Assembly: GCA_045648425.1 (NCBI GenBank)
Contig: JAZRNV010000089.1
Location: forward strand, 17,691 to 81,690
Length of the DNA stretch: 64,000 nt
Origin: Acutalibacteraceae bacterium
GTDB taxonomy: Bacteria > Bacillota > Clostridia > Oscillospirales > Acutalibacteraceae
Direction of reading: 5' to 3'
A model generated the notes under the pieces. It ran no database searches. It was given only the letters and a program-made list of their open reading frames with translations, and was not told the DNA's origin. Shown piece by piece: positions 10,009 to 24,744 of this stretch (positions within the stretch are counted from its first letter, which is position 1; each line of letters opens with the position of its first letter). The position numbers and the translations under genes are program-made.

Positions 10009-10533
10009 ATGCGTTATTGTCCTAACTGTCAAACACAATTTGATGACAGTATGGTTTTCTGCTCTAATTGCGGAACTGCCCTTGTGCAGCAAGCTCAACC
10101 CAACTATTATCAACAGCCGCAACCGCAACCCGGGGTCATTTATCCTCAACCGGTGCCCGTCGATCACACAAAGCCCTCAAAGGCAAGAACCATCGTGGGT
10201 ATGATTATGTCTTTATGCGGTCTTGAAGGCGGTGCTGTCTCGTTAATATTGTTTATGTGGCTTGGCTTTTTCGGCGCATTGTTTCAGCTTATAGACGGTT
10301 CTACGGAAGGTCAAATTGTAATGTCGGGCCTTTCTACCTTCTACAGCGTATTCTTCGCCATTTTTTCTCTTCCCTTCAGCATTATAGGTTTGACCATGTC
10401 TAAAAGATCTATAGCTATGGGCAGCCAGTCCAAAATGTGCAAGGTCGGTCGTATTACCGGTATTATCGGCTTAATAATCACCATTGTTCCTGTTGTTATC
10501 AGTTTCTTATCTTTGGTACCTTATATGGCATAA
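10009..10533 (+). CDS. zinc-ribbon membrane protein (N-terminal CxxC-x11-CxxC, Q/P-rich linker, about 3 TM helices)
   Basis: 174 aa. CPNCQTQFDDSMVFCSNCG, then a QQPQPQPG linker, then hydrophobic helices. The membrane part is clearly paralogous to the next gene (IVGMI..., MSK...G...MC..G.I.G.IGLI). Confidence 0.7.
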   Translation: MRYCPNCQTQFDDSMVFCSNCGTALVQQAQPNYYQQPQPQPGVIYPQPVPVDHTKPSKARTIVGMIMSLCGLEGGAVSLILFMWLGFFGALFQLIDGSTEGQIVMSGLSTFYSVFFAIFSLPFSIIGLTMSKRSIAMGSQSKMCKVGRITGIIGLIITIVPVVISFLSLVPYMA

Positions 10534-10573: not shown

Positions 10574-11356
10574 ATGTTTGTTTGTCCTAATTGTAACGCC
10601 ACCTCAGAAACACCCGCAAAGTTTTGCACTGTTTGCGGAACCGCTATGGTAGAGGCAGCTCCTGCTGAGCCCGCCGCTCCCGCTTATGAGGCACCTGCCG
10701 CTCCTGCTTACGAGGCACCTGCTGCTCCTGCTTATGAGGCACCCGCTGCTCCTGCTTACGAGGCACCTGCTGCTCCTGCTTACGAGGCACCTGCCGCTCC
10801 TGCTTATGAGGCACCTGCCGCTCCTGCTTACGAGGCACCTGTTCAGCCCCAGTATCAGCAGCCCGTTTATCAGCAGCCCGTTCAGCCCCAGTATCAGCAA
10901 CCCGTTTATCAGCCCCAGTATCAGCAGCCCGTTTATCAGCAGCCCGCTGAAAACGCAAACAAGCCCTCTCTCGCCAAGAGCATTGTAGGCATGATTCTTG
11001 CCATTGTCGGCGCTTTCTTCTGCTTTTTCACCATTATTTTTGCTCTTGTTTCTTTGGGCTCTGAAGAATATGCTTTTTCAGTTATGTCTATGGTTTACGG
11101 CATAATAGGTTTGCCCCTTTCAATCGTTGGCTTTGCTATGTCTAAAAGCGCAAAAAATGCCGGCGCCACCAATGGTATGTGCTCTGCCGGTAAAATCGTA
11201 GGTCTTATCGGTCTTATAGTTAACGCTGTGGCCATGTTCCTCAGCGTTGTCGGTATCGCCATCGGTCTAGATTATGGCTATTTTGATGACGATTACGATT
11301 ATGATGATTACGACGATTATTACGATTACGACGACGACTACTACGATTATTATTAA
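10574..11356 (+). CDS. zinc-ribbon membrane protein with tandem-repeat linker and Asp/Tyr-only C-terminal tail
   Basis: 260 aa. CPNCNATSETPAKFCTVCG, 7 x (A/E)PAAPAYE, Q/P/Y repeats, about 3 TM helices, then DYGYFDDDYDYDDYDDYYDYDDDYYDYY. RBS AAAGGAG. Confidence 0.75.
   Translation: MFVCPNCNATSETPAKFCTVCGTAMVEAAPAEPAAPAYEAPAAPAYEAPAAPAYEAPAAPAYEAPAAPAYEAPAAPAYEAPAAPAYEAPVQPQYQQPVYQQPVQPQYQQPVYQPQYQQPVYQQPAENANKPSLAKSIVGMILAIVGAFFCFFTIIFALVSLGSEEYAFSVMSMVYGIIGLPLSIVGFAMSKSAKNAGATNGMCSAGKIVGLIGLIVNAVAMFLSVVGIAIGLDYGYFDDDYDYDDYDDYYDYDDDYYDYY
10667..10834 (+). repeat. in-frame 24-bp tandem repeat, 7 units, encoding (A/E)PAAPAYE
   Basis: Read directly: the units GCACCTGCYGCTCCTGCTTAYGAG differ only at third codon positions. 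Confidence 0.95.
10835..10945 (+). repeat. in-frame degenerate repeat encoding (V)QPQYQQPVYQ(QP) units
   Basis: Read directly from the translation APVQPQYQQPVYQQPVQPQYQQPVYQPQYQQPVYQQP. Confidence 0.9.
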
Positions 11357-11373
11357 TTAACTGATTTAATTAA

Positions 11374-11412
11374 ACACCGCGATTTCGCTTTTGCGTTATC
11401 GCGGTGTTTTTT
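11374..11412 (+). terminator. rho-independent terminator after the zinc-ribbon gene pair
   Basis: ACACCGCGAT (11374..11383) pairs with ATCGCGGTGT (11398..11407), followed by TTTTTT. Confidence 0.8.
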
Positions 11413-11494
11413 AGCGCTTATTTGCTTGACTTTTGACGTGTTAAATTTTATAATAATTATGATTATTATAAAAGCAAGTGGGTATTAGTAAAAT

Positions 11495-13414
11495 ATGAAC
11501 TTTGTAAAAATTCTTAATCAAAACCGTGATGCCCTTACGGCCACAAAAAAAGATTTTAAAGCTGTTTTTGAAATTATGTTTTCTCACCGAGATTTGAATG
11601 CTTGTGAAGAAAATGACGGCTTCAGAATTAAAAAGCACACCTATGGCCAGGCATACGATGCAATACTTAAAGCTGCCAACGCCCTCAAAAGCAGAGTCGG
11701 TGTTAAGCATCAGTATATCGCAGTGGAAATTGAAAACTCTTACAATTGGATTATTGCCTTTTGGGCTGCCCTTGTAAGCGGCAACAAGCCCTATCTTGTC
11801 AACACCAGATACCCCGAAAGCTTAACAAACGCCATATTAAAAACGCTCGATATAAAATACTCACTGTGCGTCGGCGGTTCCCGACTTGAGGTTGAAGGCA
11901 TTGACGTCACCGCCCTTTCGTCCCAAACCCCATGCGGACTTGAGGATATGGAGGATGAAATCGCCTTTTCATCCTCTGCAACATCTATGAATGAGGTTGT
12001 CTGCTTTTATTCGGGTTTTCAGGTTGCGGAACAGGTTTTAAACTTCGACTCTATTATCAAAGAGTGCCCTCGAATGGTAAAAACCCATAAGGGTCAAATC
12101 AAGCATCTGGCATTTTTGCCCTTCTATCACGTGTTTGGCCTGTTTGCCGTTTACTTTTGGTTTTCTTTTGTTGGCGCAACAATGGTCTTTTTGCGCGATT
12201 ACTCTGCCGACACAATTCTTAAAACCTGCCGCCGTCATCAGGTAACCCACATCTTTGCCGTGCCAATGCTGTGGCATACGGTAGAGCAAAAGGTGCTCAA
12301 ATCGGTAAATGAGTTGGGTGAAAAGCAGGAAAAGAAATTTATTAAAGGGCTAAAAGCAATGACCCGTTTGCAAAACGCCTTTCCGAACATTGGCCCCGAA
12401 ATTGCTAAAAAGGTGCTGTCTAAGGTTACAAACAAGCTGTTTGGCCCTTCGATTATCTTTTGCATTAACGGCGGCAGCTATCTGAGAAGCAGTGCTGCAG
12501 AACTGCTAAACGGCTTGGGCTACAGCATCCACAACGGATACGGAATGAGCGAAATCGGCATCACTTCGGTTGATTTGCGCGTTAAACCAAAGCATTTAAA
12601 TCAAAACTCCATCGGTCGACCCTTTGATGCAGTAGAATACAAAATCGATGAAAACGGCGTGCTTTTGGTCAAAGGCACCACCCTTTGCACCAAAAAGCTT
12701 GTTAACGGGCAAGAAAGAACTGTTGACGGCTGGTTTAACACCGATGACAACATGACTGAAAAGGACGGGTACTATTTCATTTATGGCCGTCAAAGCGATA
12801 TCGTTATAGGAGACAACGGCGAAAACATCAATCCCGACCGCGTGGAGCAAGTGTTCAGCATTCCTGCCGCCAAAGCCCTGTCGGTATTGGGCCTGCCTAA
12901 AGACAACGGCGAAGAGCTGTCGATGATCGTTCAGATAAGTCCCTATCTTAACAGCGCACAGATAAACGAAATCAAAAAGCAGGTGTATGACATCAACTCC
13001 ACCCTGCCTCACGTGTCTGCTGTAAGAAGGTTTTACTTTACCACCGACCCGATTATGTCGGAAAATGCAATTAAAGTCAGCCGCAAGCAGCTGATGGATT
13101 TTATCAAGCGCGGTGTGGTTAAGCTGACCGATTTTGAACAATCGGCCTCCCCTGTCAGCGGCGACGAAACAGGCAAGCCATTGTCGGCGCTGGAGATTGA
13201 GGTGGCAAAAATCATTGCCGAAAATCTCGGCATTGATGCTGCCGCCGTCACACCCGAGGCACATATCTTTTTTGACCTGGGCGGCTCAAGCATTCAGTAT
13301 TTCTCTATACTGACCGCCATTTCCGAAAAATTCGGAATGGAAGGATACAATCAAGGAGATACCTATTGCTATACCCTTAAGGATATTTGCGAATATATAG
13401 AAAGACGTTTATGA
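11495..13414 (+). CDS. ANL-superfamily (AMP-binding) adenylase fused to a C-terminal carrier (PP-binding) domain; acyl-carrier-protein synthetase-like
   Basis: 639 aa. Motifs NGYGMSE (A5), YGRQSDIVIGDNGENINP (A8) and a late Lys (IKVSRKQL). The C-terminal FFDLGGSSIQYFSIL is a carrier-domain motif. The P-loop-like A3 motif is degenerate (SSSATSMNE). Confidence 0.7.
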   Translation: MNFVKILNQNRDALTATKKDFKAVFEIMFSHRDLNACEENDGFRIKKHTYGQAYDAILKAANALKSRVGVKHQYIAVEIENSYNWIIAFWAALVSGNKPYLVNTRYPESLTNAILKTLDIKYSLCVGGSRLEVEGIDVTALSSQTPCGLEDMEDEIAFSSSATSMNEVVCFYSGFQVAEQVLNFDSIIKECPRMVKTHKGQIKHLAFLPFYHVFGLFAVYFWFSFVGATMVFLRDYSADTILKTCRRHQVTHIFAVPMLWHTVEQKVLKSVNELGEKQEKKFIKGLKAMTRLQNAFPNIGPEIAKKVLSKVTNKLFGPSIIFCINGGSYLRSSAAELLNGLGYSIHNGYGMSEIGITSVDLRVKPKHLNQNSIGRPFDAVEYKIDENGVLLVKGTTLCTKKLVNGQERTVDGWFNTDDNMTEKDGYYFIYGRQSDIVIGDNGENINPDRVEQVFSIPAAKALSVLGLPKDNGEELSMIVQISPYLNSAQINEIKKQVYDINSTLPHVSAVRRFYFTTDPIMSENAIKVSRKQLMDFIKRGVVKLTDFEQSASPVSGDETGKPLSALEIEVAKIIAENLGIDAAAVTPEAHIFFDLGGSSIQYFSILTAISEKFGMEGYNQGDTYCYTLKDICEYIERRL

Positions 13415-13417
13415 TAT

Positions 13418-14059
13418 ATGTTTAAAAACAAGGTTATTGTAAATTTATTTGTGGGGTTCGTAAAACTGACAGGTTTGCCTGCCGCCTGGGTGTTTTTTAA
13501 GCCCAAGGTGTTTTATATGGGCAAACGCACTTCTTTGCCCAAGCCCTGCATTGTTGTTTCAAACCACAAATCCTTAATGGATTTTGTGCTATACCTTTTG
13601 ATATTTCCCTTCAGAACCATACGCTTTCTGATGGCTGAGGTGCTTTTTAACAAAGGCAAGCTGTTTGGCAAGTTTTTGCACGCTATCGGCGGCATAAAGG
13701 TTGACCGTGATGCTCACAGCTTTGACTTTGTGTCTGACGCTTTGCAGGTGCTTGACGAGGGCGGCACGGTAGGCATTTTTCCCGAAGGAAGATTGCCCAT
13801 TGGCGGAAAGCCCTGGCCCTTCACCCCAAGCACCGCCTTCATTGCAATGCATACCGACGCACCTATTGTTCCCGTTTATACCGACGGCAACTATGGTCTT
13901 TTCAAACGCACAAAGGTAATGATTGGCGAAAAAATACACCTTGGTGATTACTGTGACCCCTCTTTGTCACAAGAAGAACAAATCAAGGCATTGACCGAGC
14001 TGCTGGAAAGCAAGGTTTATGCCCTAAAAGACGAATTGACAAAAAGGACAGAAAAATAA
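13418..14059 (+). CDS. PlsC-family (lysophospholipid/glycerol-phosphate) acyltransferase
   Basis: 213 aa. N-terminal hydrophobic segment, HX4D motif NHKSLMD, and FPEGR. Confidence 0.8.
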   Translation: MFKNKVIVNLFVGFVKLTGLPAAWVFFKPKVFYMGKRTSLPKPCIVVSNHKSLMDFVLYLLIFPFRTIRFLMAEVLFNKGKLFGKFLHAIGGIKVDRDAHSFDFVSDALQVLDEGGTVGIFPEGRLPIGGKPWPFTPSTAFIAMHTDAPIVPVYTDGNYGLFKRTKVMIGEKIHLGDYCDPSLSQEEQIKALTELLESKVYALKDELTKRTEK

Positions 14060-14712
14060 TGCCAGACATCAAAAAACAATCGAGTCATAAGCTTTTTAGC
14101 TTTAAAACCATTCCTATGGATATGGCGCGGCTGGTCTGCAGTCCGTTGCCTCTTATATTCCGTCTGCAAAGGGTTGACACCGCAGGCAACAAATACACAA
14201 AAAAGCACAAAGGCGGTTTTATTTTGGCCGCCAACCACACCAGCTTTGCCGACCCCTTCTTGGCAGGAACCGCTATCTGGTACCGCCGCTCCTTCATCCT
14301 GGCAGCCGAGGTTGTAATGAGAAATTGGTGGCGCTCTTTTCTGCTTAAAGGTGTGGGGTGCATAAAAATCGACCGCAACGTGGCAGATATTGAAGCCATC
14401 AAAAAATCGGTGCAGGTGCTCAAGGATGGCTATGTGCTGACCATCTTCCCCCAAGGGGGCATTGATGTTGACGGCAATAATCAGCTGAAATCGGGCGCAG
14501 TGCTGATGGCATTACAGGCAGGCGTGCCTATTTTGCCCATACATATTCACAAGCGGCAAGGCAAGCTTGGCAAACGCAAGGTTGTTTTTGGTGATATGAT
14601 ATATCCCGGCGAAATGTGCACAAAAAAATTTCCGTCCACCAAGGATATTGAGGGCATAACCCAACGCCTGACAGAAGAAATGAACAGATGCAAAGATGCA
14701 ATAAAGGAGTAA
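14059..14712 (+). CDS. second PlsC-family acyltransferase
   Basis: 217 aa. HX4D motif NHTSFAD and FPQGG. Its start shares base 14059 with the previous stop. Confidence 0.8.
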   Translation: MPDIKKQSSHKLFSFKTIPMDMARLVCSPLPLIFRLQRVDTAGNKYTKKHKGGFILAANHTSFADPFLAGTAIWYRRSFILAAEVVMRNWWRSFLLKGVGCIKIDRNVADIEAIKKSVQVLKDGYVLTIFPQGGIDVDGNNQLKSGAVLMALQAGVPILPIHIHKRQGKLGKRKVVFGDMIYPGEMCTKKFPSTKDIEGITQRLTEEMNRCKDAIKE

Positions 14713-14715
14713 ATT

Positions 14716-14952
14716 ATGAGTACTTTCGAAAGATTGGTTGAAGTTTTTAAAGCGGTTTTTGACGGCGAAGTAGATATCAGCAAGCTCACCGTGGATGCCA
14801 ACCTGCGTGAGGATGTAGGTATGAACTCTATCGGTATGCTTTATATGGCCATGGCTCTTGAAGAAGAGTTTGAGGTAAAATTTACCAACGAAGATTTTAT
14901 CTCCATCGCCACCGTAAAGGACGTTATCTCCTGCATTGAAGGCAAGCTGTAA
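14716..14952 (+). CDS. stand-alone acyl/peptidyl carrier protein
   Basis: 78 aa and acidic. EDVGMNSIGMLYMAMALEEEF places a Ser where phosphopantetheine normally attaches. Confidence 0.75.
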   Translation: MSTFERLVEVFKAVFDGEVDISKLTVDANLREDVGMNSIGMLYMAMALEEEFEVKFTNEDFISIATVKDVISCIEGKL

Positions 14953-14954
14953 TT

Positions 14955-15362
14955 ATGGAATGGATTTCAGCCGAGCCCAAATTTGGGGATATTATAAGAA
15001 CTAAGGTCAGCTTTTATTATCACTATGGCATTTTTGCAGACCCCCAAACTGTCATTCAGTTCGGGTTGCCTGACGATGTCAACCGACCTGCCGATCAAAT
15101 TAAGGTGCTTACCAGCGATATTTACGCTTTTTTGATGGGCGGCGAGCTTGAGGTCGGCAAAATGAGTCGCGCCGAGGTTAAAAAAAGCCGCAGCGCCAAA
15201 GAGATAGTAGACATTGCCCTCTCCCGTCTGGGCGAAGGCGGCTATCACATCTTTCATAACAACTGTGAGCATTTTGTTTATGAATGTGCCTTTAATGAGA
15301 AAAAATCTGAATTTGTAAGCTCAGTCAGAGATTCTATCAGAAAGAAACTGGGCAAAAAATAA
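14955..15362 (+). CDS. LRAT/PLAAT (H-RAS-like suppressor, NlpC/P60-related) family thiol acyltransferase/phospholipase-like protein
   Basis: 135 aa. Conserved His box YYHYGIF (His23) and NCEHF box (HNNCEHFVYE, Cys104, codon 15264..15266). Confidence 0.7.
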   Translation: MEWISAEPKFGDIIRTKVSFYYHYGIFADPQTVIQFGLPDDVNRPADQIKVLTSDIYAFLMGGELEVGKMSRAEVKKSRSAKEIVDIALSRLGEGGYHIFHNNCEHFVYECAFNEKKSEFVSSVRDSIRKKLGKK

Positions 15363-15380
15363 AAAAGGAGGTGCCACGGT

Positions 15381-16055
15381 ATGTGGATTGTTTGGACGCT
15401 ACTTGGAATTATTGCCGCTATTGTGGCGCTTATAATCTTTTTGCCCGTCTATATCATCATCAAAACCGATGAGGACGGACAGCTTGTTATTTTATATAAA
15501 ATTCTTTTCAAAACCTTTGGCGAGCATCCTGACCCTAATAATCCCCTTTTGAAGGCCATCAAAAAATCGGTGGGCCTGACGATTTTTGATAAAAAGCAAA
15601 AAACTACCGAAGGCGGAGCATCCTCAGAGAGCGACCTTCCCGGCTTTATTTTTACCGTTAAGGATATGTTCCGCGTTTTAGGCACCTTGCTTTTAGAGGT
15701 TAAAAATTTGCTGAAGCACTGCACCGTTAAAAAACTGCACATCACCGCCGTTTGTGCAGGTGAGGATGCAGCAGAGGCCGCTATCAACTACGGTCAGCTT
15801 TGCACGATTATATACCCATTCATCGGACTGGTGCATTCGGCCATGAAGGTAAAAAGAAAAGCGAAAAATCTTGATATACGCTGTGATTACAACGCAACCG
15901 AAGAAATTTTTCGCTTTAATTCTCTTATTTCTGTAAGATTGGGCACAGTGCTTGTTGCCTTCTTTAAGGTATCTTACAAGGAAGCAATGCACAATGTAGA
16001 GGTTTTGAAAGAGCAGGATCGTTTGAGAGAAGCGCAAAATCAAAACAAAAAGTAA
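15381..16055 (+). CDS. membrane-anchored protein of unknown function (possibly DUF2953-like)
   Basis: 224 aa with one N-terminal TM helix (MWIVWTLLGIIAAIVALIIFLPVYII). RBS AAAGGAGG. The family call is from memory and weak. Confidence 0.35.
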   Translation: MWIVWTLLGIIAAIVALIIFLPVYIIIKTDEDGQLVILYKILFKTFGEHPDPNNPLLKAIKKSVGLTIFDKKQKTTEGGASSESDLPGFIFTVKDMFRVLGTLLLEVKNLLKHCTVKKLHITAVCAGEDAAEAAINYGQLCTIIYPFIGLVHSAMKVKRKAKNLDIRCDYNATEEIFRFNSLISVRLGTVLVAFFKVSYKEAMHNVEVLKEQDRLREAQNQNKK

Positions 16056-17030
16056 TCAATTCTCAAAAAATTCAAATATGGCCTTCAGGCATTCCTCTAT
16101 CACTTGGCTTTCCCCCGAAAAGAGGTTGTGCCCTGCTTCTACGATTTTTACTCTGCAATCGGGGCAACCCTTGGCAAAGGGAATGTGATAAGAGGTTTTA
16201 ACAACAGTATCATCGGTTGCTGTTATAAGCAGCATGGGTATTGTAAGCGCCTTTAAGAAAGAACGTTTCATCATTTTTGGACGCATTTTGAGAGTCTCAT
16301 AAACCCATCCGTTGGATAATGGCGTGGTTTGATACATCGGCTCCTTACGCCGCCAATCCATATTATAATCAAAACGCTTGCGGCTGTTGTGCTCTTTTTC
16401 CTTAAACTCGGGGTTAGGATCAAACTCCTTGGCGTATCTGTAACGGGCTTTGTAGCCCTGAAAAAATCCGCACACACCTGTGCCGTTTCGTGCAAGCCAA
16501 GGTGGAACCCCATTAAGCTCCGGCTCGATGAGAGGAGACGAAAGCACGGCCTTTTTGATTTTGTGCTTGTAGCTTTTAAGATAAAGCGCAGTAACCGCGC
16601 CACCCATTGAGTGAGAAAAAATATAAAGGGGCTTTTGAGTAACCTTTTGCACCACCCCGGTAATAAAGGCATTAAGGTCGTCGGCATAATCTTTAAATCT
16701 GTCCACGTGAAGCAGAGTTATATCCTCTGCCATTCGGCAGGAAAGTCCGTGGCTGCGTTGGTCATAAACAAACACATCGTAGCCAAAGTTTAAAAAGTAA
16801 TATACCGTTTCGTTGAATTTTTTTGTAAACTCACTTAAACCGTGAACAATAATAATAGCGCCCTTGCTCGATGGTTGGGTAAAATACTCGTAATAAAACT
16901 TTTTACCGTCAAAGGTCTCAAAGAAGCCGTTAGTCATACACTGCGCGATGGTCTCCTCAGCCATTGGCATTTTGACTGCAAAATCTTCTTCACTAAAAAC
17001 GTCAAGCGTGTGGGTGGGGTTAAAGTTCAT
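16056..17030 (-). CDS. alpha/beta hydrolase, lysophospholipase/monoacylglycerol-lipase-like
   Basis: HGLSEF oxyanion region and GXSXG elbow SHSMGG. The ORF track extends to 17090, but the ATG at 17030 (MNFNPTHTL) has an AGAGG RBS. Its stop abuts the stop of the convergent gene with zero spacer. Confidence 0.7.
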   Translation of the reverse strand: MNFNPTHTLDVFSEEDFAVKMPMAEETIAQCMTNGFFETFDGKKFYYEYFTQPSSKGAIIIVHGLSEFTKKFNETVYYFLNFGYDVFVYDQRSHGLSCRMAEDITLLHVDRFKDYADDLNAFITGVVQKVTQKPLYIFSHSMGGAVTALYLKSYKHKIKKAVLSSPLIEPELNGVPPWLARNGTGVCGFFQGYKARYRYAKEFDPNPEFKEKEHNSRKRFDYNMDWRRKEPMYQTTPLSNGWVYETLKMRPKMMKRSFLKALTIPMLLITATDDTVVKTSYHIPFAKGCPDCRVKIVEAGHNLFSGESQVIEECLKAIFEFFEN

Positions 17031-17080
17031 TTTTAATACCTCTGCCTTCAGACTAAAATTTAATTCAGGTGGTGATAATA

Positions 17081-18028
17081 ATGTTATCAAACAAAAAAGC
17101 TACGCTAAAAAAGGTTTTGATAATTATTATCGCCCTGGTGTTAATATTCACTGCTGTTTCTATGGCGGCCACAAAATTTATCTATGACGGCATATTTGCA
17201 CGCTATGATAAAGCTCTGCAAGTGCCGGATGAATTGGGGCAAATGGTTGACAGCAGACAAAAAATCAGTTATAATTCCGGAGATAACCTTTTAACCGGTT
17301 ATCTTTATATTTGTGACGGCCCCAATAAAAAAGACGGGCTTGTTGTGCTGGCTCCCGGCTTCAGAGCGGGTGCCGACAGCTATCTCTGCCAGATCGACAG
17401 CTTGCTTAATTACGGTTGGTCGGTGTTTGCCTTTGACCCTACGGGCAGCTTCGGCTCAGAGGGTGAATCCTGCATCGGGTTTTCTCAAGAACTGCTGGAC
17501 CTCGAAGCCACCCTTGACCATATCGAGCAAAAGGGACGTTACGGTTTTGAGCATCTGGCTATATTAGGTCACAGTCGCGGCGGTTATGCGGCCTGCTGCG
17601 CCTTAAGAAGCAAGCACAATATATCTGCAGTTGTTTCGGTAAGCGGTATAAACAGCGCCATGGACGGCATTATTGAGCCGTCAGCCGATAAGGTAGGCGC
17701 CCTGGCCTACGGTAACTACGGCTTTTTATGGCTTTACCAGGCAGTGCTGTTTGGCACCGACACGGTCAACGTCAAGGCCTGCGAAGAGATTAACAAATCG
17801 GATACTCCCGTGCTGATTGTTCACGGCAGTAACGACCAACAGGTTTCGCGCGACAAGCACTCGGTTATAGCTCACAAGGAATGCATAACAGCACCTGATA
17901 CCGAGTATTATATTTGCTCCAAATCGGGGCAAAACGGTCACACCAGCTTGCTTTTTGACGGTGAGGAAGGTGCCAACGAGCAGCTGATGAAACGTATAAA
18001 CGAATTTTTTGAATGTAAAATGAACTAA
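17081..18028 (+). CDS. membrane-anchored alpha/beta hydrolase
   Basis: N-terminal TM (KKVLIIIIALVLIFTAVSMAA), GXSXG elbow GHSRGG, HGSNDQ and a late GH. The ATG at 17081 is preceded by AGGTGG (the ORF track starts at GTG 17069). Confidence 0.7.
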   Translation: MLSNKKATLKKVLIIIIALVLIFTAVSMAATKFIYDGIFARYDKALQVPDELGQMVDSRQKISYNSGDNLLTGYLYICDGPNKKDGLVVLAPGFRAGADSYLCQIDSLLNYGWSVFAFDPTGSFGSEGESCIGFSQELLDLEATLDHIEQKGRYGFEHLAILGHSRGGYAACCALRSKHNISAVVSVSGINSAMDGIIEPSADKVGALAYGNYGFLWLYQAVLFGTDTVNVKACEEINKSDTPVLIVHGSNDQQVSRDKHSVIAHKECITAPDTEYYICSKSGQNGHTSLLFDGEEGANEQLMKRINEFFECKMN

Positions 18029-18046
18029 AACAATTTGGGGGTAAAA

Positions 18047-19069
18047 ATGAAGGTTGTTTTAATTCCTGCCTATGAACCGGACTGTGAACTCATTAAGCTT
18101 ACACAACAGCTAAAGGCAGAGGGCTTTTCTGTTTTGACAGTTGATGACGGAAGCGGCGAAAAATACCGTCACATATTCGACAGCGTAAAAGAGTACGCCA
18201 CCGTTATAGCCCTTGATAAAAACAGTGGCAAGGGTGCTGCTTTAAAATTCGGTATGCGATACATCCGCTCAAATATGCCTGATTGCGAAGCGTTTATCAC
18301 CTGCGATGCCGACGGTCAGCACAAGGTTGAGGATGTTGTAAGAGTAGCCAATATGCTTGACGAAAAGAACTCTTTTGTGCTTACCGTAAGGCGCAGAAAA
18401 AAAGGCATTCCTCTGCGTTCAAAGGTGGGCAACGATCTGTCTCGTTTCGTTTATGCCCTGCTGGCCGACAAGTATCTTTCAGATAATCAGTCGGGCTTGC
18501 GCGGTTTTAACATAAAGCACATCGACTGGCTTATAGAGGTTGAAAAAGACAACTATGACTATGAGATGAACGTGCTGTTTTATGCCGCAAAAAAGAGCAT
18601 TAAAATATCAACACTGATGATTGAATCAATCTACATAAACAACAACGCATCATCACATTTTAACCCCATTGGAGATACAATCAAAATTTATAAGGGGCTC
18701 TTTACCCGTGCCTTCGGTAAATTTATAGCTTTTGCAGTGTGTGAAATTTTGGTGCTGATTGCATCCATCATTTTCGGTTATGAGCATTTGAGTTACACCT
18801 TGCCCGTTATCGGTGCTGTTGGATACGCCTTGACCATTTTGCTTAATATGTTCATTTTCTTCAGAAAAACCGAAATATATGAGTACAGAAGCACCCTTAT
18901 TTATACGGTAATTTATTATTTCTTTTACACCTTAAGCTGCACCACAATAGGACTTGCTTTTCCGCAAATTCCTTTGTTTGCCGCCTTTAACTTTGTTTAT
19001 CTGGTGTTTATTCCCATAAGATTCTTTTTTCACAAGTTTATTGCGATGGCAACAACGCCAAAAGAATAA
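18047..19069 (+). CDS. GT2-family glycosyltransferase with C-terminal multi-TM domain (polyprenyl-phosphate sugar transferase-like)
   Basis: MKVVLIPAYEPD, DDGSG and CDADGQH (DXD-type) motifs. About 4 hydrophobic helices in the last 130 aa. The ATG at 18047 follows GGGGG (the ORF track starts at TTG 18035). Confidence 0.7.
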   Translation: MKVVLIPAYEPDCELIKLTQQLKAEGFSVLTVDDGSGEKYRHIFDSVKEYATVIALDKNSGKGAALKFGMRYIRSNMPDCEAFITCDADGQHKVEDVVRVANMLDEKNSFVLTVRRRKKGIPLRSKVGNDLSRFVYALLADKYLSDNQSGLRGFNIKHIDWLIEVEKDNYDYEMNVLFYAAKKSIKISTLMIESIYINNNASSHFNPIGDTIKIYKGLFTRAFGKFIAFAVCEILVLIASIIFGYEHLSYTLPVIGAVGYALTILLNMFIFFRKTEIYEYRSTLIYTVIYYFFYTLSCTTIGLAFPQIPLFAAFNFVYLVFIPIRFFFHKFIAMATTPKE

Positions 19070-19081
19070 TTTTTTGTTATT

Positions 19082-19125
19082 TAAAAGACAAACATTCGTT
19101 TAAGAATGTTTGTCTTTTGTTTTTT
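19082..19125. terminator. bidirectional rho-independent terminator between GT2 and plsX
   Basis: AAAAGACAAACATTC pairs with GAATGTTTGTCTTTT, then TGTTTTTTG. An A-run on the other side serves the minus strand. Confidence 0.8.
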
Positions 19126-19141: not shown

Positions 19142-20122
19142 TCAGCTCAAGGCATCCTTCATAAATGAAATAAAATTGCCATCCTCCAATCGGAGTATCT
19201 GATCAATGCAGGCGTGTGCCGTATCACGATTGGCAGAGCCGTGCATCTTAACCACTGTTTTTTGAGGGCCAAGGAAGGTAGCTCCGCCCTGTGAATTAAA
19301 GTCGAACACCTTAAAAAGACGCTTTTTGAGCTCTTCCAGCTGTGGGCAGGGCGATTCCGCCGCCACGGCATCGGCCAACGCAATAGCCGCCTTGCCTGCT
19401 GCCTCGGTATTTTTAAGCAAAATGTTGCCTGCAAAGCCATCAGCAACAATAACATCCGCCTGACCCATCACCAGGTCATAGCCCTCTACATTACCGATAA
19501 AGTTAAGGGGAAGCTCTTTTATAAGAGAAAACGCCTCTTTTGTTAGGGCATTGCCCTTGTGATCCTCTCGTCCAACGGAAAGCAAGCCGATTCGGGGGGA
19601 TTCAATTCTACACATACTTTTCGAGAAAGCATTGCCCATCTTGGCATAGCGCACTAGATCGGCAGCAGAGCAATCCATATTGCCGCCGCAATCGACCAAA
19701 CAAACCAGATTGTCAGTCATACAGGGTAGCGCTGAGGATAATGCGGGATACTTTAGGCCTTGAAGCAAGCCCAATCGGCATATTGAGCCCACAAGCAGAG
19801 CACCTGTATTGCCTGCCGAAAGCATTGCAACCGCTTGGTCGTTTTGCTTTAGAAAATCATATGCCATAACCATTGAGCAATCATCATGGCCACCGAAAAC
19901 GCAGGTGGGTGGATCGTCATTGGTTATGAATTTATCGGTATGGATTATGCTGTAACGGCTATCGGGAATGTTTTGGGAGTCAAGCAATGCCTTCACGGCC
20001 AACTCGTCACCGACAAAGACAACGTCAAAATCATCCCGTGTCTTTAAGGCGTCGCACACACCCAACACAACCGGCTCAATGCCATTGTCGGCGCCGTACA
20101 CATCCACAACGATTTTTCGCAT
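19142..20122 (-). CDS. plsX: phosphate acyltransferase PlsX
   Basis: 326 aa. The N-terminal IVVDVYGADNG matches the PlsX AVDAMGGD-type motif, and the length is typical. It follows fakA by 10 nt. Confidence 0.85.
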   Translation of the reverse strand: MRKIVVDVYGADNGIEPVVLGVCDALKTRDDFDVVFVGDELAVKALLDSQNIPDSRYSIIHTDKFITNDDPPTCVFGGHDDCSMVMAYDFLKQNDQAVAMLSAGNTGALLVGSICRLGLLQGLKYPALSSALPCMTDNLVCLVDCGGNMDCSAADLVRYAKMGNAFSKSMCRIESPRIGLLSVGREDHKGNALTKEAFSLIKELPLNFIGNVEGYDLVMGQADVIVADGFAGNILLKNTEAAGKAAIALADAVAAESPCPQLEELKKRLFKVFDFNSQGGATFLGPQKTVVKMHGSANRDTAHACIDQILRLEDGNFISFMKDALS

Positions 20123-20132
20123 AAAAAGCTCC

Positions 20133-21779
20133 TTATTCTAACGAAATAATAAAACTGTAAACATCCTGCTTGCCGTTTACAAAGCCAATGTCACACATGG
20201 GATAATTCTCTGTCAGGCGAGCTCTGAACTCGTCCACCTCGGCATCGGTAACATCTTGACCATAGAAAACGGTAAACACCTCTTTGTCTTCAATGCCGTC
20301 AATGGCTGCAATAAGGTGCATGGCAACAGAAACCTTGTTATCACCGCAAGCAAGAATGGTCTTGTCTCCAAGGCCGATATAATTATCCTTTTGAATTTTG
20401 ATGCCGTTCATCTCGGTATCTCTCGTGGCGGTAGTAACAGATGCAGTGGTAACGTTAGCAAGGCCGCAGGTCATTTCTTCAATAACCTCTTCAACGGTAT
20501 CGCACCACAAATTCATCATAGACAGAGCGGAATAACCCTCTACAACCGATTTTGTAGGAATAACGCGCACGTCCGAATCGGTATAAAGCTCGGCTGCCTG
20601 ACGGGCAGTGAGCACAACGTTTGAGTTGTTAGGCAAAACAATTATATGCTCAGCATCATATTTTGCAAAGGCGTCAAGAAAGGCGTCAACGGGCGGGTTG
20701 TTGGTTTGACCGCCATTAATGACGATATTTGCGCCGATGCTTTCAAAATACTCAATAATGCCATCGCCCGATGCAACTGCAATAATGGCATATTTCAAAT
20801 GCTCTTTTTCGGGTTTGGCTGCTGCACTTTGCTCAATTTCGCTGTGCTGAACCGACATATTTTCAATTTTTAAGGTAACAAACTCACCGAATTGACGGCC
20901 GTATTCCAGCACTTTTTCGGGAGTAAAGGTGTGAATATGTATTTTAACAATATCACCGTTGCACACGGCCACCAATGAATCACCCATATTTTTCAAGGGC
21001 TCAATAAACTGCTCTTTATCAAAATTGGGTATGTCGGTTTTATAATTCATAAGTTGCAATATGAATTCGGTGCAATAGCCATATTCAAGCTGACTGTCGG
21101 GGCCAAATGAGGATGCCCCTGATGACATATTCGGCTCAAGAAAATCAGGTATATCATCAATAGTCTCGCCGCAAAGATAGGCATACATTCCTTCAAAAAT
21201 GCAAACCATACCTGCACCGCCGCTGTCAACAACATTGGCTTCTTTAAGCACAGGCAGCATTTCGGGAGTTTTTGCCAAAGTGGTCTTCATTTGATGAATA
21301 AGAGCCGCCAAACAATCCTCAAAGCAATCAAACCTGCCTGCATTGCCCTCGAGGAACTCTGCACCCTCTCGAATAACGGTGAGCATTGTTCCCTCGGTGG
21401 GGGTGATTATAGCTTTGTAGGCCGCATCGGTAGCACAGCGGAAGGCGTGTGCCAAATCGTCAACCGATGCCAAACGCACGTCTGAAAAGCCCTGAGCAAT
21501 TCCATATATAAATTGCGACAGAATAACACCCGAATTTCCTCTGGCCGACAACAAGACGGCGTGAGACAGCTCTTGCATATATCTGCCGAGGTCTTCACAT
21601 TCGCCGCTTACGCTACGCAGGCCACCGCCAAAGGTTTTGGCCATATTGGTGCCTGTATCACCGTCGGGCACAGGAAAAACGTTAAGGTCATTTACAGTAT
21701 TAACATTCTTTTTCAGATTGCGGTATCCGCTTTCAAACAAAGCACTCAGCAGAATGCCGTCCAGCTGTTTAGTCTGCAT
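20133..21779 (-). CDS. fakA: fatty acid kinase catalytic subunit FakA (DAK2 domain protein, YloV family)
   Basis: 548 aa. N-terminal Dak2 motifs (PDGDTGTNM, RGNSGVI), a central HIHT domain and a DegV-like C-terminal domain. Sits directly downstream of two DegV genes. Confidence 0.85.
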   Translation of the reverse strand: MQTKQLDGILLSALFESGYRNLKKNVNTVNDLNVFPVPDGDTGTNMAKTFGGGLRSVSGECEDLGRYMQELSHAVLLSARGNSGVILSQFIYGIAQGFSDVRLASVDDLAHAFRCATDAAYKAIITPTEGTMLTVIREGAEFLEGNAGRFDCFEDCLAALIHQMKTTLAKTPEMLPVLKEANVVDSGGAGMVCIFEGMYAYLCGETIDDIPDFLEPNMSSGASSFGPDSQLEYGYCTEFILQLMNYKTDIPNFDKEQFIEPLKNMGDSLVAVCNGDIVKIHIHTFTPEKVLEYGRQFGEFVTLKIENMSVQHSEIEQSAAAKPEKEHLKYAIIAVASGDGIIEYFESIGANIVINGGQTNNPPVDAFLDAFAKYDAEHIIVLPNNSNVVLTARQAAELYTDSDVRVIPTKSVVEGYSALSMMNLWCDTVEEVIEEMTCGLANVTTASVTTATRDTEMNGIKIQKDNYIGLGDKTILACGDNKVSVAMHLIAAIDGIEDKEVFTVFYGQDVTDAEVDEFRARLTENYPMCDIGFVNGKQDVYSFIISLE

Positions 21780-21784
21780 TTAAA

Positions 21785-22672
21785 TTACTCTCTTCCCTCA
21801 ATGGTTACTTCTTTGCCGACAACATAGGCAACTACAGTACCGGGGCCAACGGATGCACCAACAATGGGGCCGATAACACCGGTAATAACCTTTTTAAAAT
21901 CAGCAAGCTTAAGTATTTCATCGCGAAGTGCTTCAATCTCTTCAACACAATCGGCATGAGACAGATAAAGTGTATCGTAATTGCCGTTTGCTGCATCAAT
22001 AACCGACTGCGCAATATCCTTGCGTGCGTTTGCAGCGCCCTTTACCTTTTTATATGCATAGTTTTGTCCCTTTATATCAGAAATGATAATGGGCTTTACA
22101 CCGAAAAGGTTGCCAAAGAAGGCCTTGGATGCCTTAACACGGCCTGCGCGGCGCAAATATTCAAGAGAGCCAACAGTGCCAAACTGATGCACCGTAAGAC
22201 GCATAGATTCGAGCTTTGCTGCAGTTTCTGCTGCAGAAAGTCCCTCATCGCGACAAGCGGCAGCTGTGATTATAAGATGGGCCTGTCCCAAAGAGCTGAT
22301 AAGTGAGTCAACGCAATAGACGTTTGCGTCGGGGCACTCTTCTTTAATCTGCTCTGCTACCCTGCGTGCAATATTAACAGAGCCGGACAAAGCAGAAGAA
22401 CAAGAGACATAAAGGATGTCAATTCCCTGCTCTGCAAGGGGCTTGAACTTTTCATAATATGCGTTCTGGGGCACCTGGGTGGTGGTTACACGCTTGCCGG
22501 CACGCATAAGGTCATAAAAGTCTTTGTATGAGTGGCTTGCCCAGTCTAAGGATGCGACATATTCCTCATCATCAACAACATAGTTCATAGGAACATAGTC
22601 AATATCGTACTGTTCACGAAGCTCTGCAATCATATCGCAGGTTGAATCACCGAAAATTACGAACTTACTCAT
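21785..22672 (-). CDS. fakB: DegV-family fatty-acid-binding protein (FakB)
   Basis: 295 aa. The N-terminus MSKFVIFGDSTCD and overall pattern are typical of DegV. Overlaps the upstream DegV gene by 4 nt. Confidence 0.8.
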   Translation of the reverse strand: MSKFVIFGDSTCDMIAELREQYDIDYVPMNYVVDDEEYVASLDWASHSYKDFYDLMRAGKRVTTTQVPQNAYYEKFKPLAEQGIDILYVSCSSALSGSVNIARRVAEQIKEECPDANVYCVDSLISSLGQAHLIITAAACRDEGLSAAETAAKLESMRLTVHQFGTVGSLEYLRRAGRVKASKAFFGNLFGVKPIIISDIKGQNYAYKKVKGAANARKDIAQSVIDAANGNYDTLYLSHADCVEEIEALRDEILKLADFKKVITGVIGPIVGASVGPGTVVAYVVGKEVTIEGRE

Positions 22673-23625
22673 TTTATATCCCCTTTATTTTTGAATTTTT
22701 GAGCAATCTCTGCCATAATTTCTTTTTCTTTTTCGCAGTTTTCACTTATCTCGGTACCTTGATAGAAGGCGGCACACAAGCCGGGGCCAACGGTAGCGCC
22801 ACAAGCCATACCAACGTCGTTTATAATAACCTCTTTGGGTGAAAACTCTTTTCTGATTCTTTCGGCCAAAAGCTCTGCCTGCTGCAAGCGGTTAGAATGA
22901 GCAACAAACATTATCTGGTCCTGTGGATTTATAACGGTTGCCTTCATGTATTCAATTACCGCATCAAAGGCGGCCTTTTTGCCCTTAAAACGGCAAAGAA
23001 CCTCGGCCATACCCTTACGGTTGAAATCGGCCATGGGGTTAACGCCCACCAAAGTGCCGAAAAAGGCCTTGAAATTGCTTATTCTGCCTGTTTTAACAAG
23101 AAAGAACAAATCATCCATAGGGCCAATCTGGTGAACCTTGTGCTTGTTTTCTTCAAGATACTGCACCGTTTCTTCCAGGGTTGCGCCCTCTTGCTGCTTT
23201 TGAGCAGCCATTACAACAAATATGGACAGCGCCGTTGAATAGCGCAAAGAATCTACAATCACGATTTTACGGTCGGGATATTTTGGTTCAAGCGTCTTTT
23301 TAACCAGCTCGCACTCTTGATAAGTGCCCGACAAAGCCGATGAAAGAGTGATGGCAATAATATCCTTGCCCTGTTTGAGATATTTTTCAAACAGCTCCAT
23401 TACCTCGCCCGCTTTGGGACTGGCTGTTTTGTAAAGAGTGGTTTTATCGGTCATTGACTCATAAAAGGTTTTGGGGTCATGATCTCCCCAATCCAGGTCA
23501 ACGTATTCAGAGTGACCGTCGGGAAAATATATAATGCCCTTCATATAATCCGGAATGCCGAATCTGTCTCTCAAATCTTTTCTGAGGTCACAAGCGGTAT
23601 CCGGAATTATAACATAATCAGCCAT
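22669..23625 (-). CDS. fakB: DegV-family fatty-acid-binding protein (second FakB)
   Basis: The ATG at 23625 (MADYVIIPDTACDL) has GGAGG 5 nt upstream. The TTG start in the ORF track (23637) would consume that RBS. Confidence 0.8.
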   Translation of the reverse strand: MADYVIIPDTACDLRKDLRDRFGIPDYMKGIIYFPDGHSEYVDLDWGDHDPKTFYESMTDKTTLYKTASPKAGEVMELFEKYLKQGKDIIAITLSSALSGTYQECELVKKTLEPKYPDRKIVIVDSLRYSTALSIFVVMAAQKQQEGATLEETVQYLEENKHKVHQIGPMDDLFFLVKTGRISNFKAFFGTLVGVNPMADFNRKGMAEVLCRFKGKKAAFDAVIEYMKATVINPQDQIMFVAHSNRLQQAELLAERIRKEFSPKEVIINDVGMACGATVGPGLCAAFYQGTEISENCEKEKEIMAEIAQKFKNKGDIK

Positions 23626-23787
23626 AAAATCCTCCAAAATATTTTCTCACAACTGTAATAATACCACATTGTTTCTTGTTTTTCAATAAAATTTTACTTT
23701 TTCCAACAATTTATAATGAAATTTGTATAATACTATGTTATAATGTTTTTTAATGTATTACCAAAAAAACAATAGAGGAGTTTTTAA

Positions 23788-24744
23788 ATGGTATTTATTA
23801 TTATCGGAATAGTGTTGGCAGTTGCCATCCTGGGCGGATTGGGTGCTATGCTTGCGGTTACATACCCCATATCCAAACGCGTCTATTTCGACAACCTTGT
23901 TCGCACCAATCCTGAAAAATGGGGCAGAGTGTGCTCTGCACCAGACAATGAGGAACAGTTGGCTATGTGGAACAGCGGTGTTGAATGGGCTGAACAAAAC
24001 CGTCAGTTTGTTAAAGAGGTTAAAATTCAAAACGACGGTTTTGACCTTTACGGCGAATACTTTGATTTTGGCGGCAAAAGCTGCGTTATCATTTTGCCCG
24101 GTCGCTGTGAAAGTCTTGTATATTCATACTACTTTGCGCCCCCCTATCAGCGTGCCGGCTTTAATGTGCTGGTTATAGACACCCGTTGTCACGGCAAAAG
24201 CGGCGGCATCCATAATTCAATCGGCGTTAAAGAAAGCCGCGATGTTATTGCCTGGGTAAAGTTTGCGGAAGAGACCTTTGGCATCAAAAGCTTTTACATT
24301 CACGGCATTTGTATCGGCACCTCGTCGGGACTTTTCGCTATGACAAGCAAAGACTGCCCCGACACCGTAAAGGGCCTTGTAACAGAGGGCTGCTATGTTT
24401 CTTTCAGAGAAACCTTCAGAACACATATGATTGCCGACAAGCGTCCCCTCTTCCCCGTTCTTGACCTGGTTATGCTGCAAATTAAAAAGCATACCGGCAC
24501 CAATGTTTATGCTCAAAAGCCCATTCGTGCCATCAAAAAAATCAAAAACAAGAGAATGCTGTTTTTGTTTGGCGAAAAGGATATTTATTCCCTTCCCAAA
24601 AAGAGCCAACAGCTTTTTGATGCCTGCGCTTGTGAGGACAAAAAGCTGGTTTGGTTTGACAAGGGCGGCCATTCGCACCTCAGAATTAACAACACCGAAA
24701 AATATGATGATACGATTGTTGAGTTTTTGAAATATGAGCAATAA
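23788..24744 (+). CDS. membrane-anchored alpha/beta-fold hydrolase with Cys in the nucleophile elbow
   Basis: 318 aa. N-terminal TM helix. The elbow reads HGICIG (Cys175, codon 24310..24312) where GXSXG is expected. Candidate Asp (GEKD) and His (GGHSH) follow. Confidence 0.6.
   Translation: MVFIIIGIVLAVAILGGLGAMLAVTYPISKRVYFDNLVRTNPEKWGRVCSAPDNEEQLAMWNSGVEWAEQNRQFVKEVKIQNDGFDLYGEYFDFGGKSCVIILPGRCESLVYSYYFAPPYQRAGFNVLVIDTRCHGKSGGIHNSIGVKESRDVIAWVKFAEETFGIKSFYIHGICIGTSSGLFAMTSKDCPDTVKGLVTEGCYVSFRETFRTHMIADKRPLFPVLDLVMLQIKKHTGTNVYAQKPIRAIKKIKNKRMLFLFGEKDIYSLPKKSQQLFDACACEDKKLVWFDKGGHSHLRINNTEKYDDTIVEFLKYEQ

Follow-up and report, generated by a model that had tools for sequence, protein, structure and literature searches.

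In Escherichia coli, lysophospholipids are re-acylated by Aas, in which a PlsC-like acyltransferase is fused to a synthetase of acyl-ACP (ACP, acyl carrier protein). The PLAAT/LRAT enzymes are Cys-His phospholipases/acyltransferases that work through an acyl-enzyme; the PLAATs N-acylate phosphatidylethanolamine (PE), and hydrolysis is a native activity of theirs. Lipid metabolism has hardly been studied in the Oscillospirales, an order of anaerobes abundant in gut and rumen, and Gram-positive bacteria are thought to rely on FakAB-PlsX. Here we describe a gene cassette conserved in Oscillospirales/Clostridia, found in 64,000 nucleotides (nt) of DNA from an Acutalibacteraceae bacterium (GenBank assembly GCA_045648425.1, contig JAZRNV010000089.1, positions 17,691 to 81,690 of the forward strand; the whole stretch is called the window). 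It encodes an adenylase fused to a carrier, two PlsC-family acyltransferases, a free carrier and an LRAT-fold enzyme, and it probably marks an undescribed route of membrane-lipid remodelling in Gram-positive bacteria.

The LplT-Aas system re-acylates flipped lysophospholipids by way of acyl-ACP made by the enzyme itself; its transporter, of the major facilitator superfamily (MFS), is operon-linked, and the system has been reported only from Gram-negative bacteria (PMC11416262). Free fatty acids are loaded onto ACP and used for making phospholipids through the soluble acyl-ACP synthetase AasS in Vibrio and through FakAB-PlsX in Gram-positive bacteria (PMC12086093, PMC10146087). Enterococcus faecalis has an auxiliary, atypical ACP, AcpB, which is co-transcribed with plsX and serves exogenous fatty acids (PMC6509188). 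The cassette would be like Aas/LplT in having an ANL-type fatty-acid activator, a carrier thioester and PlsC-family transferases, and in relatives an MFS gene lies in the operon. AcpB gives a precedent for an auxiliary ACP, and the cassette, as with FakAB-PlsX, is linked to fakA/degV/plsX.

The five-gene cassette and its proteins

The conserved unit consists of five genes, which in the window are:

11495-13414, + strand: A-T fusion (adenylase-carrier, 639 amino acids (aa)), an ANL-superfamily domain joined to a PCP-like carrier (Pfam AMP-binding and PP-binding)
13418-14059, + strand: PlsC1, PlsC-family acyltransferase, 213 aa (PF01553)
14059-14712, + strand: PlsC2, PlsC-family acyltransferase, 217 aa (PF01553)
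14716-14952, + strand: free ACP-like carrier, 78 aa (Pfam PP-binding)
14955-15362, + strand: LRAT/PLAAT-fold Cys-His enzyme, cytoplasmic, 135 aa (PF04970)

An earlier sequence-only reading of the window had drawn the unit more widely, as six genes followed by hydrolases and a glycosyltransferase of family 2 (GT2). Each of its domain assignments is upheld by Pfam profile searches. Co-conservation in relatives, which it had set beforehand as a refuting test, was found for the first five genes. Metagenomes were scanned with an alignment of the LRAT protein, giving 80 loci (63% to 25% identity; designated by L numbers) whose open reading frames (ORFs) were scored against the window proteins; dereplication at 85% LRAT identity left 42 lineages, and genes were counted where the contig reaches that far. 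About 50 loci share the order A-T, PlsC1, PlsC2, ACP, LRAT, the most distant of them at 36% LRAT identity. ACP is present in 37 of 38 lineages, immediately upstream of LRAT, PlsC in all 24 and A-T in all 17. All LRAT homologues of at least 36% identity come with the cassette and have the ACP gene directly upstream, often overlapping LRAT; at 35% identity or less, no cassette genes are found. Recurrence of this order in about 50 independent loci puts the arrangement far outside what chance would give. In L003, the five-gene core stands among entirely unrelated flanks. The sixth gene, a PldB-like hydrolase gene, a second hydrolase gene and the GT2 gene travel together only in the window's own lineage, and L003 is without all of them; the functional unit is therefore the five genes.

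The core occurs in three architectures. Type i, that of the window, reads A-T, PlsC1, PlsC2, ACP, LRAT, and is mostly followed by a stand-alone Sfp-type phosphopantetheinyl transferase (PPTase); the window, L001 and L005 are without the PPTase. Type ii reads A-T, (MFS_2), PlsC, PlsC, A2, ACP, LRAT-PPTase, (hydrolase). The A2 protein, encoded before the ACP, is a stand-alone ligase of canonical type, about 500 aa long, with an intact P-loop, TGGTTGxxKG (Pfam, 194 bits). In type iii both PlsCs are merged into one protein of about 420 aa; PlsC1-PlsC2 proteins of this size are found in L005, L039, L045, L049 and L051. In L049 and L051, fakA, plsX, A-T, PlsC-PlsC, ACP and LRAT form a tightly packed same-strand string. 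Type-ii loci commonly run on, on the same strand, into degV, (MFS_2) and fakA. FakA/DegV genes adjoin the cassette in 11 of the 19 lineages with enough flank, PlsX in 6 and MFS_2 in 8. Thus fakA/degV/plsX lie next to the cassette in three arrangements: convergent in the window, downstream in type ii, and as an upstream operon in L049 and L051. This strengthens the link to exogenous fatty acids that had been proposed from the window. The equally early remark that the gene set was not known as a characterised pathway also holds, in that no matching pathway was found in the literature, nor any description of the cassette or of the LRAT-PPTase fusion.

MFS_2, the GPH family, includes the eukaryotic lysolipid carrier Mfsd2a. 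A transporter of this type is encoded inside the cassette operon in L020, L088 and L089; a PDB sequence search for likeness to Mfsd2a or LplT gave no match, and its hits to the GPH family are weak. In L028-L042 (for example L030, 10843-14226; L041, 10524-14500), a GPH/MFS_2 transporter of about 625 aa, whose C-terminal ~200 residues have no Pfam match, is encoded between degV (fakB) and fakA. This position suggests a dedicated lipid or fatty-acid importer in the fatty-acid-kinase operon. The window itself has none of the three parts that say most about mechanism, which are A2, the MFS_2 transporter and the fusion of LRAT to the PPTase, and the sequence-only reading could not see them.

The A-T protein matches AMP-binding with an E-value of 1.5e-31 and PP-binding with 6e-7 (Pfam); the AMP-binding match reaches 110 bits in two fragments, versus 194 bits for A2. 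Residues E353, D418, R432 and K527 are invariant across the family; the A5 Glu (GYGMSE), A7 Asp, A8 Arg and A10 Lys remain so even in comparison with A2. Relative to A2 there is an insertion of about 45 residues, perhaps resembling that of ACSL-type long-chain ligases, a possible likeness that carries no weight here. The T domain has FFDLGGSS in the window and the PCP-like motif DLGG[STA]S, with the phosphopantetheine Ser, in the family. The best family and PDB matches of the A domain are MenE, 4-chlorobenzoate ligase and generic acyl-CoA/fatty-acid ligases, and the A-T C-terminus matches ACPs. More than 100 full-length homologue clusters (56-82% identity) were found, and where a source is named it is a metagenome-assembled genome (MAG) of Oscillospiraceae or Clostridia, annotated merely "AMP-binding protein". 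A scan of reference genomes with the A-T protein gave one close relative, in an Acutalibacteraceae MAG (82% identity), and an unrelated Vibrio ligase.

Both PlsCs are clear members of PF01553 (6.8e-21 for PlsC1, 5.4e-19 for PlsC2), and their sole PDB sequence match is TmPlsC of Thermotoga (5kym; 1.7e-10 and 2.9e-8). For PlsC1, conservation is at least 95% at the His and Asp of the HX4D motif (NHxxxxD) and at the FP of FPEG, and at least 80% at the E. PlsC2 has kept the NH and DP of its own HX4D motif, and its third motif is FPQG in the window. The two proteins score 58.0 and 63.7 bits against the housekeeping model TIGR00530, below its cut-off of 102.95. Their NCBIfam matches are the generic PlsC domain model and otherwise Aas-type models only, the latter at 32-53 bits, far below cut-offs of 886-1349. 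The free carrier matches PP-binding at 1.5e-10 (Pfam), and its phosphopantetheine site, Ser38, is at least 95% conserved among 38 sequences. Its best NCBIfam AcpP score is 48.9 bits against a cut-off of 71, and all 15 matched models stay below cut-off.

The LRAT protein matches PF04970 at 8e-17, with 62.1 bits against a gathering score of 24.3. H23, Q35 and C104 (in NCEHF) are invariant, so that the permuted His...Cys dyad is present; the third active-site residue is the invariant Gln35, where PLAAT3 has His35. The AlphaFold2 model (pLDDT 89.4) has as its top Foldseek matches in the PDB 4fa0, 7zom, 4dpz and 7zot, all with probability 1.0. The closest structures are human PLAAT3/AdPLA, HRASLS2 and PLAAT4, with target-normalised TM-scores of 0.7-0.8. 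Prediction of hydrophobic segments found no transmembrane (TM) helix, signal peptide or C-terminal membrane anchor; the C-terminus forms a basic amphipathic helix. A long form of the protein is a fusion to the Sfp-type PPTase (PF04970 plus PF01648), and this fusion is seen in 119 of the best 120 homologue clusters of the long form, down to 37% identity. In an exhaustive profile search, which gave 3443 LRAT-like representatives at E <= 1e-3 and 89 at E <= 1e-30, fusion-like lengths of 250-380 aa dominate the top 150 representatives. The representative library also holds a protein of 1125 aa, P0397, with nine separate LRAT-like stretches, an unusual tandem array.

Proposed mechanism and alternative explanations

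With moderate confidence we read the cassette as a split and elaborated Aas/LplT-like system. It would activate free fatty acids, load them onto carriers of its own and use them to re-acylate (lyso)glycerolipids, and the LRAT enzyme would act on a carrier thioester. The starting points are the observed domain identities, catalytic-residue conservation, gene order, fusions, and linkage to fakA/degV/plsX, PPTase and MFS_2 genes. Carrier-thioester acylation is the best supported chemistry because A is fused with T, PlsC with PlsC and LRAT with PPTase, and because the sub-modules are ordered, A-T by the PlsCs and A2-ACP by LRAT. The recurrent neighbours, namely fakA/degV/plsX, genes for membrane-anchored esterases and MFS_2, point to scavenging of exogenous fatty acids or lysolipids. 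The HX4D motifs of the PlsCs, Ser38 of the carrier, the DLGGxS of the T domain, the A5, A7, A8 and A10 residues, the LRAT His and Cys, and the PLAAT-like fold are consistent with catalytic competence.

In the proposed sequence of events, the A domain of A-T would use ATP to activate a long-chain free fatty acid of exogenous or recycled origin, and would transfer the acyl group as a thioester to the phosphopantetheine of the carrier fused to it. The PlsC paralogues would then esterify two different hydroxyls of a glycerolipid or lysoglycerolipid acceptor from acyl-carriers at the cytoplasmic face of the membrane, an Aas-like re-acylation or remodelling step parallel to FakAB-PlsX. The free ACP-like carrier would be a second acyl shuttle, loaded in most relatives by the dedicated second adenylase. 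Since the window has no A2, loading of its free ACP would fall to A-T acting in trans, or to PlsX with acyl-phosphate as the source. The LRAT enzyme (Cys104/His23/Gln35) would act on the free carrier through an acyl-S-Cys intermediate, either passing a further acyl chain to a lipid acceptor or exchanging acyl groups between phospholipid and carrier. A bolder extension, which we consider possible though doubtful, is that this protein is the first LRAT/PLAAT member to use acyl-S-ACP instead of a phospholipid ester as donor or acceptor, and that the cassette, with two PlsC paralogues and two adenylase/carrier lanes, is a self-contained machine of gut and rumen Clostridia that imports lysolipids and fatty acids and assembles a position-specific, possibly tri-acylated membrane lipid undescribed in bacteria.

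Several observations weigh against the split Aas/LplT-like system. The P-loop (A3) of A-T is degenerate and has lost GxPKG, reading FSSSATSMNEVV in the window and [ST]S[GA]T[ST] family-wide; side by side, A-T has SSSATSMNEVV versus TGGTTGxxKG in the A2 paralogue. Activity of A-T in adenylation is thus uncertain, and the true activating enzyme of relatives might be the canonical A2. Of the 81 NCBIfam families matched by the A domain, the 25 best include no Aas model. The cassette PlsCs are not separable from a housekeeping PlsC by the score of a third PlsC in L049, and they may be either auxiliary or the only PlsCs of the cell. PPTase, second adenylase and MFS_2 transporter are all absent from the 64-kb window, whose cassette is a reduced form, and the LplT-Aas analogy rests on the relatives. 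The carriers of the cassette are all uncultured MAGs or metagenome contigs. Finally, we infer from sequence which fatty acids are used, how the free ACP of the window is loaded, which lipids accept acyl groups, which way the LRAT reaction runs and what is made.

The alternative that fares best, though we regard it as tentative, is a specialised-lipid cluster in which PlsC1, PlsC2 and the LRAT enzyme each add a carrier-delivered chain, the outcome being a new multi-acylated lipid such as N-acyl-PE, acyl-phosphatidylglycerol or an acylated glycolipid, and not mended ordinary phospholipid. Dedicated carriers below the AcpP cut-offs, an Sfp-type PPTase and, in relatives, two adenylase/carrier pairs are hallmarks of such clusters, the established N-acylation of PE by PLAAT enzymes would supply the chemistry, and GT2 and hydrolase genes adjoin the cassette in some lineages. 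However, the core is without tailoring genes (head-group, amino-acid or sugar-activating), GT2 adjoins it in only 5 of 19 lineages, and the repeated linkage to the housekeeping genes fakA/degV/plsX fits bulk-lipid metabolism better. The glycolipid product envisaged in the sequence-only reading has gained no specific support.

A second explanation changes only the role of the LRAT enzyme, which would be a Cys-His thioesterase for carrier maintenance that clears wrong or stalled acyl groups, analogous to the type II thioesterases of nonribosomal peptide synthetases (NRPS) and polyketide synthases. The enzyme's fusion to the carrier-priming PPTase, the frequent overlap of its gene with the ACP gene, the hydrolysis native to PLAATs and the missing membrane anchor would all agree with such editing. 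Type II thioesterases are normally alpha/beta hydrolases, however; the basic amphipathic C-terminal helix and PLAAT fold suit interfacial lipid chemistry, and the protein is conserved as strictly as the acyltransferases, which suggests a core catalytic step over a proofreading accessory. We therefore judge this explanation unlikely.

Clearly less probable still is that the cassette provides the main de novo phosphatidic-acid route of fatty-acid-scavenging Clostridia, with one PlsC as the glycerol 3-phosphate and the other as the lysophosphatidate acyltransferase, both supplied with exogenous fatty acids that are activated by ATP and delivered by private carriers. A pair of successive PF01553 enzymes, in some loci fused, would suit these steps; in L049 and L051 the cassette extends a fakA-plsX operon. 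In the window plsX lies in the fak operon and no fab genes were found among the 45 ORFs scanned, which reach to about 41 kb. This explanation leaves the private PPTase and the LRAT enzyme unaccounted for, and in L049 a further PlsC-family gene, scoring no better than the cassette PlsCs, lies 5 kb from the cassette, so that the cassette PlsCs are not unique there. Chance adjacency, or an NRPS-like small molecule that is not a lipid, is scarcely credible: the PCP-type motif of the A-T didomain and an A domain resembling MenE/aryl-CoA ligases as much as fatty-acid ligases would fit the latter, but the gene order is kept in about 50 loci in a consistent fak/plsX context, the PlsC and LRAT families act on lipids, and condensation, thioesterase and reductase domains are absent.

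A role in anti-phage defence was also considered and rejected. The six proteins have no PADLOC match. L005 and L088 have phage and restriction-modification genes next to them, and neighbours of this kind do not recur.

Neighbouring genes and signals in the window

The other features of the region are as follows:

10009-10533 and 10574-11356, + strand: Zn-ribbon small membrane proteins of the upstream operon (Pfam Zn_Ribbon_1/Zn_ribbon_3; C-terminal TM helices)
11372-11415, + strand: intrinsic terminator closing the upstream operon (hairpin and T-run)
11426-11473, + strand: promoter and overlapping palindrome (consensus match; palindrome search)
15381-16055, + strand: gene 6, membrane protein anchored at the N-terminus (weak DUF2953)
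16056-17030 (ORF 16056-17090), - strand: PldB/lysophospholipase-L2-like alpha/beta hydrolase (Hydrolase_4)
17081-18028, + strand: second alpha/beta hydrolase, membrane-anchored (Pfam Hydrolase_4 and Abhydrolase_1)
18047-19069, + strand: GT2 glycosyltransferase (PF00535; C-terminal TM helices)
19082-19119, both strands: bidirectional terminator between GT2 and plsX (hairpin)
19142-23637, - strand: degV-degV-fakA-plsX operon (Pfam FA_synthesis, Dak2/FakA-like, two DegV)
23788-24744, + strand: third alpha/beta hydrolase, membrane-anchored, at the edge of the lipid-gene island (Hydrolase_4; N-terminal TM helix)

The six packed same-strand genes noticed at 11495-16055 are present as ORFs at these coordinates, all on the + strand, with intergenic gaps of 3, -1, 3, 2 and 18 nt. 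Within this run, the search for internal terminators gave only weak stems of 5-6 bp at a frequency near shuffle expectation. The terminator proposed upstream is real: arms of 17 nt (11372-11388 and 11393-11409; 88% complementary) enclose a 4-nt loop and are followed by T6, and the element folds with -25.3 kcal/mol (z = -5.9). On its 3' side, TTGACT-17-TATAAT at 11426-11454 agrees with the promoter consensus at 11 of 12 positions. A perfect 12+12-nt palindrome at 11446-11473, TTTTATAATAAT-TATG-ATTATTATAAAA, overlaps the -10 box of this cassette promoter and may be a repressor operator. The palindrome segment is unchanged in L001 despite diverged intergenic flanks, and L006 has a different, AT-rich palindrome at the equivalent place. 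Among 16 loci no common palindrome, as a shared operator would require, was found upstream of the cassette; promoters of its own are common there.

Gene 6 has a strong GGAGG ribosome-binding site, a TM helix at residues 9-27 and a weak match to DUF2953 (4.3e-5, Pfam). It appears to be co-transcribed with the core in the window and does not belong to the conserved set: DUF2953 genes were found in 6 of 27 lineages, and in L006-L011 a minus-strand PPTase gene lies between LRAT and gene 6. A link to sporulation, raised by a GerA neighbour and by the DUF2953/YtfI-like gene 6, was rejected, since GerA occurs in 2 of 25 lineages, DUF2953 in the 6 of 27 just given, and neither belongs to the core. In the window's lineage, a Zn-ribbon gene and an opposite-strand PPTase gene are usually found between LRAT and the block of gene 6, hydrolases and GT2.

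The two hydrolases and the GT2 said to follow the six genes are all present; it had been overlooked that the first hydrolase (ORF 16056-17090) is on the minus strand, convergent with gene 6 and divergent from the second hydrolase. True starts are likely at 17030 for this gene, and at 17081 and 18047 for the next two. The stop codons of gene 6 (TAA, + strand) and of the PldB-like gene (TGA, - strand) directly abut at 16053-16058 with no terminator between them, so that each gene should receive antisense transcription from the opposite side. The minus-strand hydrolase matches Hydrolase_4 at 6e-39 and, below cut-off, the NCBIfam lysophospholipase L2 model at 3e-35, and has no TM helix. The second hydrolase has a GHSRG nucleophile elbow and an N-terminal TM helix. 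Its cluster is found in 26 of 51 cassette loci by all-vs-all clustering, in which linked families can merge, and in 8 of 19 lineages by a stricter best-match count. The GT2 resembles polyprenyl-phosphate glycosyltransferases, with PpgS as its best NCBIfam model, below cut-off.

The convergent fakB-fakB-fakA-plsX cluster had been recognised correctly: Pfam finds DegV, DegV, FakA and PlsX on the minus strand at 19142-23637. This operon faces the GT2 gene across the hairpin at 19082-19119, which has a 16-bp stem and folding energies of -20.0 kcal/mol (z = -6.6) on one strand and -18.3 kcal/mol (z = -6.9) on the other. Directly past the degV genes, the third hydrolase (23788-24744) has the nucleophile elbow G-I-C-I-G, with Cys instead of the usual Ser. 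The end of its gene is overlapped by 11 nt by a gene at 24734-25609 (+ strand) for a polysaccharide deacetylase with DUF3473, which is like the XrtA-system deacetylase and below that model's cut-off.

The upstream Zn-ribbon protein encoded at 10574-11356 contains seven exact-period 24-nt repeats (10673-10841) encoding PAAPAYEA seven times, then repeats rich in Q, P and Y (10841-10946) and a C-terminal tail of extreme Asp/Tyr content (11295-11352). Similar Zn-ribbon genes, some also with DUF4190, flank the cassette in L003, L005, L006/7, L031, L035, L041 and L089. They recur in several architectures and, as an unquantified impression, are commoner than expected for a small non-core family. The GC content is uniform across the region. 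Elsewhere in the window, scanned to about 41 kb, the genes are those of an ordinary chromosome, for transporters, rRNA methyltransferases, zinc uptake and proline synthesis.

Significance and comparison with known systems

If the split Aas/LplT-like system is correct, the Oscillospirales cassette would be a second, ATP- and carrier-dependent route for building membranes from host or dietary lipids, beside fak/plsX. It would matter for colonisation, for the way membranes adapt to bile and fatty acids, and for the bypass of fatty-acid-synthesis inhibitors. The widespread LRAT-PPTase fusion provides a concrete hypothesis for the role of a cytoplasmic LRAT-fold enzyme in bacteria, and it might add to the chemistry of a family whose mammalian members are known for making N-acyl-PE and retinyl esters.

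In Myxococcus, ElbD combines a fatty-acid ligase, an ACP and an AGPAT/PlsC-type acyltransferase with a reductase in one multidomain ether-lipid protein. The cassette, in contrast, is not a single multidomain protein and has no reductase, and ElbD has no LRAT domain.

The cassette LRAT shares with mammalian PLAAT/HRASLS and LRAT the permuted papain-like fold and the His...NCEHF Cys site. It differs from the PLAATs in having no C-terminal anchor, Gln instead of the PLAAT3 His35, co-conservation with an ACP and, often, fusion to a PPTase. The last two properties imply a carrier thioester as donor or acceptor, which to our knowledge is not known for the LRAT/PLAAT family. The best-characterised bacterial LRAT-like enzyme is LnsA of Staphylococcus aureus, an NlpC/P60 acyltransferase with a Cys/His dyad that acts with LnsB and takes the sn-1 acyl chain of phosphatidylglycerol (PMC13559823). 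LnsA is secreted by way of a cleaved signal peptide, works outside the cell and has a CPBP partner, whereas the cassette LRAT is of cytoplasmic type and encoded with carrier machinery. Pfam calls no CPBP-family protein in the conserved neighbourhood, and the PDB search gave no sequence-level match between LnsA and the cassette LRAT. An LnsA-like extracellular N-acylation of lipoproteins was rejected, as the protein has no signal peptide and is encoded among genes for cytoplasmic carriers.

Both AasS and AcpB work for the general pool of ACP and for the housekeeping PlsC, whereas the cassette adenylase has a carrier of its own and private acyltransferases. We know of no LRAT or PPTase partner of AasS or Fak.

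The idea of a split Aas-type chemistry, put forward in the sequence-only reading, was reasonable in that the PlsCs match Aas-type models and relatives have an MFS gene in the operon; membership of Aas by fusion or score was not borne out. The cassette would work like Aas/LplT, yet it falls outside Aas by its split proteins, low scores, non-Aas-like A domain and other MFS family. Its relatives encode an MFS_2/GPH-type transporter, versus the LplT type that accompanies Aas. In Aas the transferase is fused to the synthetase and the housekeeping ACP is borrowed; in the cassette these are separate genes and the synthetase is fused to its own carrier. Compared with Aas, the transferase is duplicated and a second carrier is added, relatives add a second adenylase and a PPTase, and the LRAT enzyme is extra.

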